From: Promethearchaeia archaeon
GTDB taxonomy: Archaea > Asgardarchaeota > Lokiarchaeia > Sigyniarchaeales > SOKP01
NCBI GenBank assembly: GCA_029856045.1
Contig: JAHQWG010000033.1
Coordinates: forward strand, 1 to 64,000
Direction of reading: 5' to 3'
Length of the DNA stretch: 64,000 nucleotides
The notes under the pieces: model-generated
Databases searched by the model: none
The model's input: the letters and a program-made list of their open reading frames with translations, nothing else
What the model was told of the DNA's origin: nothing
Part shown: positions 3,947-20,023 of the stretch, one piece after another
How positions within the stretch are numbered: position 1 is the stretch's first letter
Layout of the letters: the number at the start of each line of letters is the position of its first letter
Translations under genes and position numbers: made by a program

Positions 3947-5620
3947 ATGTTTGATGAGAACTACCTTAAAAAGATTAAAGAAAGGAAGCAAGAATGGGAT
4001 AAAAAACTTGAAAATACAAAAGAACGTGATATAAAATTTATCACGGATTCAGGAATTCCAATTAAAAATTTATATACTCCATTAGATGTAAAGAGCAATT
4101 ATTTAGAGAATTTAGGTTTTCCTGGGAACACTCCTTATACCAGAGGAGTATATCCGAACATGTACAGAGGACGATTATGGACTATGAGATTGTTTTCAGG
4201 GCATGGGACACCTGAAGAGACTAATAAGAGATGGAAGTTTTTATATTCTCATGGAGAAACAGGATTTAGTGCAGCTGTTGATGCCTTAACATTTAATGGT
4301 ATAGATCCAACTAATCCTGACGGAGATGCAGAAGTTGGAACATCTGGAGTTCCATTATATTGTATTGACAGCATGTTTGCCCTTACAGAAGGATTACCAA
4401 TTGATAAAGTAAGTGTTGCATTAATAGTTGAACCCTTTACATCAGCACCTGTATGTGCAATGTATTATAATATGGCAAAAATGCGCGGACTTGATATTAA
4501 AACATTGATGGGAACAACACAAAATGATATCTTAACAATGACAGTTGGATATGTTCCTTATAAAAATGTAAATCCTTATCATATTCTTCGATTAGCTTGT
4601 GATTTAATTGAGTGGTGTGTACCACAAAAGAATGTCCCAAGGTGGCATCCTATTAATTTTACGGGATATAATTATAGGGAAGGTGGAATTGATGCAATTC
4701 AAGAATTAGGGTTTGTATTTGCAAGTGCATGTTCTCATATTGATAATTTAATTGAGAGAGGTTGGAAAGTTGATGATTTTGTTAACCGTCTTGCATTTCA
4801 TCTCTCAGCTCATAAGGATTTCTTTGAAGAAATAGCTAAATATCGGGCAGCTAGACGGATTTGGTATAAATTAATAAAAGATCGATACGAAGCAAAAAAT
4901 CCCAGATCCATGGAATTTAGGTTTCATGTTCAAACTGCTGGAAGTTCCTTAACTGCGCAATCCCCTAATGTAAATATAGTAAGAACAACAATTCAAGCTT
5001 TAGAAGCAGCATTAGGCGGAGTCCAATCACTCCACACAAATTCTTACGATGAAGCAATTTGCTTGCCTTCTAAAGAAGCAGTTTTACTTGCATTAAGAAC
5101 CCAACAAGTAATACAGGATGAAACAAGAGTTCCAAATACTATTGATCCATTAGCGGGTTCTTATTTTATCGAGTGGCTAACCGATGAACTCGAAGAAAGA
5201 GTGTGGTCTTATATAGATAAAATTGAAAAAGTTGGTAATATTGCGAAAGCATTAGATACAGGTTGGTTATATAAGGAAATGAGAGATGCTTTTATGCGTA
5301 GGCAAAATCGTATCGAAAAAGGAGAAGAAATTGTACTTGGAGTCAACAAATTTCCAGTTCCTTATGATCAAACAACAACTGTATTTAGGACCAATAAGGA
5401 AGCAGTAAAAATTGAACAAGAAAGGATTATAAACTTGCGAAAGCGGCGAGATAACGCTAAATTAGAAACCCTTTTTGATAAATTACGAAAAGTATGTGAA
5501 AAAGAAGAGAATGTAATGCCCATTATGATGGAAATAACAAAAGAAGGAGCAACAGTTGGTGAAATTTGCGATGTTTATCGCGAAGTTTGGGGAATCTGGG
5601 AGCCCCCAATTGCTATTTAA
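3947..5620 (+). CDS. B12-dependent acyl-CoA mutase large (substrate-binding) subunit, MCM/ICM family
   Basis: PYTRGVYPNMYRGRLWTMR, TQNDIL, FFEEIAKYRAARR, QSLHTNSYDEA motifs. Confidence 0.93.
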   Translation: MFDENYLKKIKERKQEWDKKLENTKERDIKFITDSGIPIKNLYTPLDVKSNYLENLGFPGNTPYTRGVYPNMYRGRLWTMRLFSGHGTPEETNKRWKFLYSHGETGFSAAVDALTFNGIDPTNPDGDAEVGTSGVPLYCIDSMFALTEGLPIDKVSVALIVEPFTSAPVCAMYYNMAKMRGLDIKTLMGTTQNDILTMTVGYVPYKNVNPYHILRLACDLIEWCVPQKNVPRWHPINFTGYNYREGGIDAIQELGFVFASACSHIDNLIERGWKVDDFVNRLAFHLSAHKDFFEEIAKYRAARRIWYKLIKDRYEAKNPRSMEFRFHVQTAGSSLTAQSPNVNIVRTTIQALEAALGGVQSLHTNSYDEAICLPSKEAVLLALRTQQVIQDETRVPNTIDPLAGSYFIEWLTDELEERVWSYIDKIEKVGNIAKALDTGWLYKEMRDAFMRRQNRIEKGEEIVLGVNKFPVPYDQTTTVFRTNKEAVKIEQERIINLRKRRDNAKLETLFDKLRKVCEKEENVMPIMMEITKEGATVGEICDVYREVWGIWEPPIAI

Positions 5621-5637
5621 ATAATGAGGTGTAAAGT

Positions 5638-6068
5638 GTGAATGAGAAGAAAATAAGAGTTTTAATGTCCAAGCCCGGCATAGATTTATTCTAAAGTTCT
5701 TAGGATAAAATGTTTACGGGCATTGGCGAGGTGGCGTGGTTGTTTCAAGAGGTTTAAGAGATGCTGGTATGGAAGTGATATTTGGAGGGTTTCAAAATGT
5801 CGAACAAATCGTTGAGTCTGCGATTAGTGAAGATGTTGATGTTATTGGTTTAAGTATGCATTCAGGGGCTCACTTAGCATATACTGAGAGAGTTATAAAT
5901 CTCCTAAAAGAAAAAGGTGTAAAAGACCACTTTTTAATACTTGTAGGTGGTGTAATTCCTGTGAAAGATTTTCTCGTATTAAAAGAAATGGGTGTAGCAA
6001 ATGTCTATGGTCCTGGAACTGTCGTAAGAGATATAGTCAAATTTATTGTAGAAAATATCAAAAAATAA
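5638..6068 (+). CDS. Acyl-CoA mutase small (cobalamin-binding) subunit, split by a 32-nt intron; join(5638..5683,5716..6068) gives 132 aa
   Basis: SD GAGGTG 5626-5631, GTG 5638; exon 1 MNEKKIRVLMSKPGI and exon 2 ...GHWRGGVVVSRGLRDAG; splicing restores I-D-G-H-W-R-G (DxHxxG); also GLSMHSG and VGGVIP motifs. Confidence 0.9.
5684..5715 (+). other. Bulge-helix-bulge (BHB) archaeal-type intron in mRNA
   Basis: Exon helix GCCCG(5673-77)/CGGGC(5717-21); central 4-bp helix GCAU(5678-81)/AUGU(5710-13); 3-nt bulges AGA(5682-84) and UUA(5714-16); 10-bp intron stem 5685-94/5700-09; cutting after the 2nd bulge nucleotide restores the frame and an Asp codon. Confidence 0.88.
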
Positions 6069-6143
6069 TGGTTAATGATTAAGAATAATTGATTCTTATT
6101 CTAATTAAAAAAGAATAAACGATATATTTGGTGTTATTTTTAT

Positions 6144-7118
6144 TTGAAGCGAAATTATGACATTGATGTTTTAATTGAGAAATTTAAAAAAAAGGATAAA
6201 ATTGCTTTAGCAAGGCTTATAACTCTTGTTGAAAATAATCCTGAAACCACTACCAACATATTTAATAACTTTAATGGTTCAGAAAAAGATTCTTATATTA
6301 TTGGGATAACTGGGTCTCCAGGTGTGGGAAAAAGCACTTTAGTTAATGCTCTTTCAAAGATTTTATTGGAAAGTGGAAAGTCAATCGGAATTATTTCTGT
6401 AGATCCAACCTCACCCTTTACTGGAGGAGCTTTTTTAGGAGATAGAGTAAGGATGACAGACGTTTCTTTACATCCAAATATATTTATACGGAGTCTTGCA
6501 TCGAGAGGTTATAAAGGTGGTATTTCAAGAGCTGTTTTTGACATAAGCTTATTGTATGAAGCTTTCGGAATGGATTTTATCATAATTGAAACAGTAGGTG
6601 TAGGTCAATCCGAATTTGACATATATAATTTGGCTTATACTACAGTTGTTATAATGGTTCCTGGGTATGGTGACTCAATTCAGATACAAAAAGCCGGAAT
6701 AATTGAAGTTGGAGATATTTATGTTGTAAATAAAAAAGATTTGGGGGGGGAAGATATTGTTGTGCAAATGGAAATGATGCTTGATGATGCAACTATCCAA
6801 AGTGGTTGGAGAGCACCGGTTGTAATGACAAATTCTATTACCGGAGAAGGAGTCAATTCTTTAATTGAAAAGATAATGGATCATAAAGAACACCTCGAGC
6901 TTTCTGAATTACTGAAAGAAAAGAAAAAACATAGATTTGCATATAAAATAGAAGAATTACTATCATCCAAAATAGGAAAGGTTCTAGAAAGTCTAATAAG
7001 TAAAGATGATCTAAATAAAATTTCTAATTCTGTTTTACAAGGTAAAAAGTTTAAAATTTATGATATGGTTCACCATTTATTTAGTAATGTAAAATTTGAA
7101 ATGAAAAAATCAGATTAA
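6144..7118 (+). CDS. meaB: MeaB/ArgK family G-protein chaperone of B12 mutases
   Basis: GITGSPGVGKST, VDPTSPFTGGAFLGDRVRM, IETVGVGQSE, NKKD; follows the mutase genes. Confidence 0.93.
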   Translation: MKRNYDIDVLIEKFKKKDKIALARLITLVENNPETTTNIFNNFNGSEKDSYIIGITGSPGVGKSTLVNALSKILLESGKSIGIISVDPTSPFTGGAFLGDRVRMTDVSLHPNIFIRSLASRGYKGGISRAVFDISLLYEAFGMDFIIIETVGVGQSEFDIYNLAYTTVVIMVPGYGDSIQIQKAGIIEVGDIYVVNKKDLGGEDIVVQMEMMLDDATIQSGWRAPVVMTNSITGEGVNSLIEKIMDHKEHLELSELLKEKKKHRFAYKIEELLSSKIGKVLESLISKDDLNKISNSVLQGKKFKIYDMVHHLFSNVKFEMKKSD

Positions 7119-19234: not shown

Positions 19235-20023
19235 ATTAAAGAAGAATTAATATTTCCCAAAAAATCAAAAATTGAACAATTTAGTTCCCAAATAAAAAGA
19301 TCTATTGCTATTGCAAAAAAAAATTTAAGGATTTATTATAATAAAGGACCAGTAGTAATTCAAGGATTTTTATTTCCAGTGATTTTATTTTTTGCAATGA
19401 CAATTGGACGAGAGATTCTTCCTATTTATATTATTTCAGGATTAATGGCGATGGTTCTCTTTTTATCTGCAACATCTATTGGACCTATAGCTTTTCCATG
19501 GGAAACAAGACAAAAAACCCTTGAAAGATTAATAACTTGTCCAATTTCAATAAAAACAATTATATTAGGAGATGTTTGGGCTTCATTTATATTTGGTTCG
19601 ATTATTTCAATTGTTCCTTTAGTATTAGGTCTTCTAATTTTTTCATTTTGGAGTTCATTAAATTTGGTAATTATTATAATTGGGGTTCTTGTGTCATCAT
19701 TTTCATTTTCCTGTATTAGCATCATTTTATCAGTCCCGCCATCAGACACACCTGCGAATACTATGATTTTAACAGTAATAATCAAGTTTCCTCTGATCTT
19801 TATAAGCCCACTTTTTATGCCAATTGAATCTGTGCCTGGTGCAATAATATCTCCACTGACTTATTTTATTGACATCATAAATTTTGGGTTGTCAGGAAAT
19901 AGTGCGTTCGGATCATTTGGATTACTACTTGATTTTGGCATTTTGTTACTTTTTGGTTTTGGCTTTCTATTTTTATCATTCAAATTGCATGGAAAAACAT
20001 TGCAAAAAAGATTTCGAGGATAA
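19235..20023 (+). CDS. ABC-2 type permease
   Basis: Six TM segments, WETRQKTLERLITCP, SPLTY; probable ATT start after GAGGTG. Confidence 0.87.
   Translation: MKEELIFPKKSKIEQFSSQIKRSIAIAKKNLRIYYNKGPVVIQGFLFPVILFFAMTIGREILPIYIISGLMAMVLFLSATSIGPIAFPWETRQKTLERLITCPISIKTIILGDVWASFIFGSIISIVPLVLGLLIFSFWSSLNLVIIIIGVLVSSFSFSCISIILSVPPSDTPANTMILTVIIKFPLIFISPLFMPIESVPGAIISPLTYFIDIINFGLSGNSAFGSFGLLLDFGILLLFGFGFLFLSFKLHGKTLQKRFRG

Follow-up and report, generated by a model that had tools for sequence, protein, structure and literature searches.

A bulge-helix-bulge intron, probably spliced, within the cobalamin-binding motif of an acyl-CoA mutase gene in a Lokiarchaeia genome

How can an archaeon obtain a functional enzyme subunit from a gene whose cofactor-binding motif is interrupted by a stop codon? 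The question is raised by the first 64,000 nucleotides (nt) of contig JAHQWG010000033.1 (assembly GCA_029856045.1), referred to here as the window, in which the gene for the B12-binding small subunit of an acyl-CoA (methylmalonyl-CoA-type) mutase is broken inside its DxHxxG motif. An earlier note on this DNA had placed a 32-nt insert with an in-frame TAA (5692-5694) at 5684-5715, proposed that it is a canonical bulge-helix-bulge (BHB) intron of the mRNA and took the host to be a probable Asgard archaeon. Every one of these coordinates is correct and the nearest relatives of the genome, itself metagenome-assembled, are named Promethearchaeota or Promethearchaeia (Loki-type), as the assignment anticipated. 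Our analysis makes it very probable that the insert is a genuine archaeal BHB intron in a protein-coding gene, removed by the splicing endonuclease EndA and the ligase RtcB. We infer cleavage and ligation in vivo, whereas the structure, the restoration of the protein, the enzyme genes, purifying selection and the recurrence of the insert in DNA could be documented. The interrupted gene consists of the following elements.

5626-5631, plus strand: GAGGTG, a Shine-Dalgarno-like motif 6 nt ahead of the small-subunit start; the orthologue of genome G004 (same genus) has an equal motif and spacing before its ATG.
5638-5683, plus strand: exon 1 of the B12-binding small subunit, a GTG start, 15 codons and the G of the DxHxxG Asp codon, aligning with the N-termini of intronless orthologues.
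5684-5715, plus strand: the 32-nt BHB intron, holding the in-frame TAA 5692-5694 and a 10-bp hairpin (5685-5694/5700-5709) with an AGUUC loop, supported by the fold and precisely absent from intronless orthologues.
5716-6068, plus strand: exon 2, opening with bases two and three of the Asp codon and running through GHWRGG to the stop, with the B12-binding domain (Pfam PF02310 B12-binding, E 2e-17).

The reading frames define the problem and restrict its solutions. Translation from the GTG at 5638, where the G004 orthologue has its ATG, yields VNEKKIRVLMSKPGI and the G that opens the Asp codon as far as the end of exon 1, and if the message is left unspliced this frame reads VNEKKIRVLMSKPGIDLF, ending in ...IDLF at the TAA. 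The remainder of the protein lies in a different frame, GHWRGGVVVSRGLRDAG... from 5718 with its stop at 6066-6068, and the PF02310 match of exon 2 begins at position 12 of the 121 of the profile. Excision of 5684-5715 joins G to AC as an Asp codon, with a predicted spliced junction of GGCATAG followed by ACGGGCAT, and opens a 399-nt reading frame of 132 codons plus stop in which the DxHxxG motif is restored as D-G-H-W-R-G, within KPGIDGHWRGG. The predicted 132-residue in-frame product follows from the sequence as the earlier note had stated and equals the intronless orthologues (about 110 genes reading KPG(I/V)DGHW) with no gap at the junction.

The fold of the transcript specifies the same excision independently of the protein. 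RNAfold applied to 5664-5732 returned the canonical hBHBh' structure claimed by the earlier note as the minimum-energy fold (-22 kcal/mol, z = -2.9), and a single one of 200 dinucleotide shuffles was as stable. The motif is strict, with two 3-nt bulges on opposite strands, a 4-bp central helix, an outer helix of 5+4 bp and an inner helix of 10 bp, and both bulges lie 3' of their own central-helix strand, as in pre-tRNA. Its parts are these.

5669-5677, plus strand: 5' strand of the outer (exon-exon) helix, CCAA plus GCCCG, pairing with 5717-5721 and 5723-5726 in the minimum-energy fold; all of its cells are paired in five distinct alleles.
5678-5681, plus strand: 5' strand of the central 4-bp helix, GCAU, pairing with AUGU at 5710-5713 (minimum-energy fold).
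5682-5684, plus strand: 5' bulge AGA, predicted cut between 5683 and 5684 (fold and the rule of a cut behind the second bulge base, PMC2738675).
5714-5716, plus strand: 3' bulge UUA, predicted cut between 5715 and 5716 (minimum-energy fold).
5717-5726, plus strand: 3' strand of the outer helix, CGGGC(A)UUGG (minimum-energy fold).

From sequence alone the intron boundary can slide by 1 nt, an A beginning the intron and exon 2 alike; we set it at 5684-5715 because of the BHB cutting rule, which for the cbf5 intron places each cut behind the second bulge base (PMC2738675).

A stop codon with a stable hairpin directly past the break also has the outline of a take-off site for ribosome hopping, of which gene 60 of phage T4 is the known example, and the 32 nt might in principle be bypassed during translation with no processing of the RNA. 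We regard such recoding as extremely improbable. The locus offers no in-frame pair of take-off and landing codons, the sole GAU of the insert (5704-5706) landing out of frame; the Asp codon is split between G and AC, a break that hopping cannot rejoin; and the bulge geometry and 4-bp helix, which have no role in hopping, are nevertheless kept in all alleles.

A further rival explanation is a dead gene: the stop-bearing insertion would have inactivated the small subunit, the fold would be coincidental and a paralogue or another mutase would cover the function. To the credit of this explanation, loose motifs are very common by chance in so AT-rich a genome. We scanned the whole 3.34-Mb genome (29.4% guanine plus cytosine) for BHB geometry with a purpose-written program, together with a reversed-genome control, and the loose pattern was not enriched (19,757 sites in the real genome against 19,655 in the control). 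The outcome was different at the strength of the mutase site. Only one genomic site, the mutase site itself, scored at least as high in all three helices, the control yielded none, and this site ranked first among the compact hairpin-closed candidates of the genome. A motif of this strength, found nowhere else in genome or control and located exactly where the cuts predicted by the rule restore a conserved protein motif, is far beyond chance. The scan is not, on the other hand, a way to discover such introns. A test of whether BHB candidates merge reading frames gave equal counts when deliberately wrong intron lengths were used; since the loose motif is also equally frequent in the control, structure alone cannot find mRNA introns in an AT-rich genome. 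The structure-only scan also missed the intron of dnaG described below, whose outer helix is weak, and the strict scanner found nothing convincing at the GHMP-kinase loci of the genome. No other copy of the mutase intron exists within its own 3.34 Mb. Short matches to parts of the intron in genomes G143, G018, G016, G124 and G011 were rejected as chance, falling in uninterrupted open reading frames or in AT-rich spacers that form no BHB.

Selection on the coding sequence bears further on the dead-gene explanation. Between the intron-bearing genes of the window's genome (G000) and G004 the ratio of nonsynonymous to synonymous substitution rates (dN/dS) is 0.185 at a dS of 0.246, indistinguishable from the 0.17-0.19 obtained against the intronless genes of G001 and G002, and the intron-bearing genes have gained no extra frameshifts or stops. 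They remain under purifying selection. As the histidine of DxHxxG is needed and the genes are so constrained, the insert must be removed. The insert moreover persists in two genera, as at least five distinct alleles, and has been recovered on over 20 contigs, and cut sites chosen from structure alone restore the exact conserved motif. Across the five distinct alleles, 99.1% of pair cells are paired. U5713 of G000 is a C in all other alleles, turning the G5678-U pair of the central helix into G-C; C5717 is a U on two contigs, a synonymous change (GAC to GAT) that still pairs with G5677; other changes affect the 3' bulge or the loop, apart from a single stem mismatch in G078. At the codons for K-P-G-I-D-G all six third positions differ between G000/G004 (AAG CCC GGC ATA GAC GGG) and the intronless G001/G002 (AAA CCA GGT ATT GAT GGT), and the six positions all sit in stretches of the outer and central helices.

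Several observations weigh against a spliced and functional gene. The genome also encodes a canonical paralogue of the small subunit, 49% identical (C44:86264-86611), so that loss of the intron-bearing copy might be tolerated. Covariation analysis found no two-sided pair change among the five alleles, a result equal to that of shuffled controls and, with so little variation, uninformative. The introns of G000 and G004 differ at 2 of 32 positions, only weakly below the 5-6 or so expected under neutrality. The only metatranscriptome run sharing words with the stretch (X20) covers 6123-6300, in the neighbouring meaB gene, at about 97% identity and has nothing over the junction; no spliced RNA was seen in it. 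Finally, translating ribosomes could compete with folding of the BHB, which starts 31 nt after the start codon. Set against the selection, persistence and structure described above, however, the dead gene is a very unlikely explanation, and splicing is the reading that we retain.

The genome encodes the machinery that such splicing would require. Two PF01974 (EndA) matches were found, at C15:85544-85777 and C14:9060-9308. The alpha-like open reading frame (197 residues) keeps a Tyr...His...Lys pattern, whereas the His is absent from the beta-like one (203 residues); we take Tyr/His/Lys to be the catalytic triad of EndA, and on this assumption called one subunit catalytic and the other structural. 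An intact RtcB of 495 residues is encoded at C27:296343-297650. Asgard archaea have been assigned an (alpha-beta)2 EndA with a broad-specificity L1 loop (PMC5829648), a type that the two predicted subunits fit. In the mechanism that we propose, the mutase operon (large subunit, small subunit and meaB) would be transcribed and transcript bases 5667-5727 would fold into the hBHBh' motif; the heterotetrameric (alpha-beta)2 EndA would cut after the second bulge base, between 5683 and 5684 and between 5715 and 5716; and RtcB would ligate the exons and probably circularise the 32-nt intron. The mature mRNA would direct synthesis of the 132-residue B12-binding subunit with its Asp-x-His-x-x-Gly intact, and unspliced RNA could give only an 18-residue peptide or a 110-residue fragment devoid of the cobalt-binding histidine.

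The identity of the protein is supported by its surroundings as well as by its own sequence. Three genes on the plus strand of the window form a mutase cluster, of which the small subunit is the second; its neighbours are the following.

3947-5620, plus strand: acyl-CoA (methylmalonyl-CoA-type) mutase large subunit, 557 residues, gene 1 of the cluster (open reading frame; Pfam PF01642 MM_CoA_mutase, E 2e-167).
6144-7118, plus strand: MeaB-type mutase-associated GTPase, gene 3 of the cluster (Pfam PF03308, E 4e-79).

The PF02310 domain of exon 2, the D-G-H-W-R-G motif after splicing and the flanking PF01642 and PF03308 proteins thus identify a B12-binding small subunit. Its orthologue group, to which window positions 5718-5735 belong, reads DGHWRGG, and canonical small subunits, including the group of the paralogue in this genome, read DGHDRGAK. 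The former motif, together with the MeaB neighbour, suggests a distinct subfamily of acyl-CoA mutases. The DGHWRGG group also occurs in Jordarchaeia, in Syntrophoarchaeum and in some bacteria.

A 32-nt insert in an environmental assembly could also be an artefact of assembly or sequencing, a possibility that the recurrence of the DNA disposes of completely. Contigs from three studies span the insert with not one difference, and 23 further contigs, reached through 110-residue gene calls and stemming from many independent sequencing runs and from ENA and NCBI assemblies, carry the insert at the identical site. The DNA runs in which the organism is represented (X1-X8) come from salt marsh and marine sediment. 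The insert is real DNA. The survey of orthologues that the earlier note had proposed as a check covered 161 genomes of the class, 113 of which have the gene. Length of the open frame turned out to be an unreliable proxy for the intron (G078 carries it and yet has an open frame of 136 residues), and the survey was redone with a DNA query containing the BHB region. The intron was detected in 3 of the 113 orthologues, in two genera: in G000, in G004 of the same genus (JAUWGH01) and in G078 of another genus (isolate ABR05). It is absent from G001 and G002, also of the genus of G000, whose proteins are 95-96% identical. The expectation that gene callers would report a truncated gene is borne out by the 110-residue proteins P0003 and P0135; in public protein collections intron-bearing alleles appear only as fragments of 110 residues (start at 5736) or 99 residues (P0003, P0135, P0122-P0125, P0123). 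Because callers truncate these alleles, annotation systematically loses the cofactor-binding motif. Two other variants of the gene were encountered. A low-depth contig of the same sample (DNA run X1, record 2, window 5721-5792) belongs to a relative of about 92% identity that has no intron and whose motif is I-D-C-H-W, Cys replacing Gly at the x of DxHxxG. The orthologue of G018 (L014, G018:C137:3602-3949) contains one in-frame TGA and no insertion, which could reflect a sequencing error, a pseudogene or recoding.

Why, then, does the intron reside in this gene? The earlier note had suggested that it acts as an on/off switch, its conditional splicing setting the amount of functional B12 subunit. 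The idea draws strength from the position of the intron inside the cobalamin-binding motif, which makes the unspliced message strictly non-functional, and from the 5'-untranslated region (5'-UTR) intron of HVO_1309 in Haloferax, which apparently plays a part in the expression of its gene (PMC7714728). Our analysis did not support the idea: the intron, present in 3 of 113 orthologues, is missing from a genome whose flanking sequence is 99.5% identical; no Rfam family was found in the window, hence no cobalamin riboswitch (nor were tRNA genes found there); and a similar intron in dnaG, with a different insert seven codons downstream of the mutase site in other genera, forms a pattern of sporadic passengers. 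We consider a switch quite unlikely even if the intron itself is real, and a dedicated regulatory role is probably not what maintains it. Since about 97% of orthologues do without the intron, no Rfam family accompanies it and a similar insert occurs in dnaG, we favour a passenger over a mutase-specific regulator. It is most likely a passenger, whether tolerated, selfish or neutral, that moves between lineages with flanking DNA by homologous recombination.

The inserts just mentioned resemble the mutase intron to different extents. The one seven codons downstream, after GHWRGG, was present in G016 (29 nt, L022:1476-1505) and in G090 (30 nt, L113:537-566, minus strand), two other genera, and in no further genome of the class. 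The two copies share their first 10 nt, their excision restores GHWRGGIVVSR and their BHB is relaxed: the outer helix is weak, and the central one is GGGG/CUCU or GGGG/CGCC. G078, closely related to G090, bears the intron at the first site instead. In dnaG of the window's genome (C43, minus strand, about 19,870-19,990) 32 nt are inserted between AIFGQ and TEGLL, with a central helix GGGC/GCCU, two AAA bulges, a fit to the cutting rule and, as noted, a weak outer helix.

Evidence for movement comes from two comparisons. The gene of G078 belongs to its own genus, its product being nearly identical to that of G090 and its dS from G000 being 1.37, yet its intron matches that of G000 at 27 of 32 positions, and the adjoining exon sequence is the same over 19 nt on the upstream and 13 nt on the downstream side. 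The second comparison was reached through P0134, a protein of 123 residues one residue off the G000 product, which led to an intronless lineage exemplified by a 344-kb JGI contig (Ga0315547_1000007, L137). Synteny with this lineage ends just past meaB, at about 7160. Divergence from G000 is distributed as follows.

4218-4851: 3 of 634 positions differ between G000 and the intronless lineage.
4852-5877, plus strand: roughly 1 kb surrounding the intron, 7.1% divergent from the intronless genome (64 of 905 positions, coding only, intron region omitted) between flanks 99.5% identical on both sides.
5878-7100: 6 of 1223 positions differ.

Within the tract, 25 sites join G000 to G004 and place the intronless lineage beside G001, against 3 that favour the opposite grouping. 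As a divergent tract lies within near-identical flanks and its sites group in this way, we conclude that intron-plus and intron-minus alleles were swapped by homologous recombination, and 4852-5877 is read as the putative recombination tract carrying the intron state. The distances weakly suggest that the intronless tract may be the imported one. A homing-type mobile intron does not describe the element, which at 32 nt is too short to encode a protein and has no second genomic copy.

Introns of this kind have precedents, the closest being in the pseudouridine synthase gene cbf5, for which Watanabe and colleagues reportedly described, in 2002, a BHB intron in the crenarchaeal pre-mRNA. The cbf5 intron of Crenarchaeota (PMC2738675, Yokobori 2009) resembles that of the mutase in being a short BHB intron of the coding sequence with a predicted cut after the second bulge base by a heteromeric endonuclease, in splitting, behind its first base, the codon of an Asp that is key to a conserved motif, and in its patchy distribution among relatives, with gain and loss. 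It differs in host and gene (an RNA-modification enzyme of Thermoproteota against a metabolic B12 mutase subunit of Asgard archaea/Promethearchaeota), in that most cbf5 introns form a relaxed BHB whereas the mutase motif is fully canonical, and in that cbf5 splicing was demonstrated by cDNA and in vitro cleavage whereas mutase splicing is deduced. In Haloferax volcanii the 5'-UTR BHB intron of HVO_1309 was confirmed by sequencing of circular RNA and in vitro cleavage (PMC7714728). There, too, the splicing endonuclease of archaea acts on an mRNA, a substrate established for HVO_1309 and predicted for the mutase, but the 46 nt removed come from an untranslated leader and no reading frame is interrupted. 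Introns of archaeal tRNA and rRNA share the hBHBh' geometry, a size range of about 15-50 nt and the EndA/RtcB machinery with the mutase intron, whose host is instead an mRNA that demands base-exact removal to keep the frame and in which splicing competes with translation. Asgard tRNA genes are, according to a preprint (bioRxiv 10.64898/2026.10.13.758758), heavily interrupted, with repeated and apparently independent gains of introns; mRNA introns are outside its scope, and neither 'mRNA' nor 'cbf5' occurs in that text.

The comparison with HAC1/XBP1 splicing made in the earlier note is apt insofar as a short intron of the coding sequence is removed by non-spliceosomal, protein-catalysed splicing that changes the frame. 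In HAC1/XBP1 the nuclease IRE1 acts on twin stem-loops, as a regulated stress switch, in contrast to EndA acting on a BHB and to a mutase intron with no sign of regulation. In metazoa the ligase of XBP1-type splicing is reported to be RtcB (PMC8718801). As of 2009 the BHB introns predicted in other archaeal genes were still unconfirmed, and our full-text literature search retrieved cbf5 as the only case in a coding region, HVO_1309 as the only one in a 5'-UTR and none in Asgard archaea. The mutase intron is thus a cbf5-type intron in a new phylum and a new gene, with population-level evidence of allele exchange.

Because a near-identical copy occupies the same codon in G078, an approximately 1-kb recombination tract surrounds the intron and a second insert lies seven codons downstream, it is tempting to regard the mutase intron as one of a population of BHB mini-introns spreading laterally among protein-coding genes of Lokiarchaeia. 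We put this forward only tentatively, as a possibility that we do not yet favour. Were it true, introns would be actively gained and lost in Asgard mRNAs in a cycle driven by the tRNA-splicing machinery, which would offer a prokaryotic model for the way in which coding sequences acquire a tolerance of introns. As annotated at present, such genes are truncated, and the public protein is here a 110-residue fragment that lacks the cofactor-binding histidine. Intron gain and loss is open here to study at the population level, because the alleles differ inside a 1-kb tract between genomes otherwise near-identical over the 3.3 kb compared. If the splicing proposed here takes place, the archaea known to be most closely related to eukaryotes would splice mRNA with the tRNA machinery in the normal course of expressing their genes.
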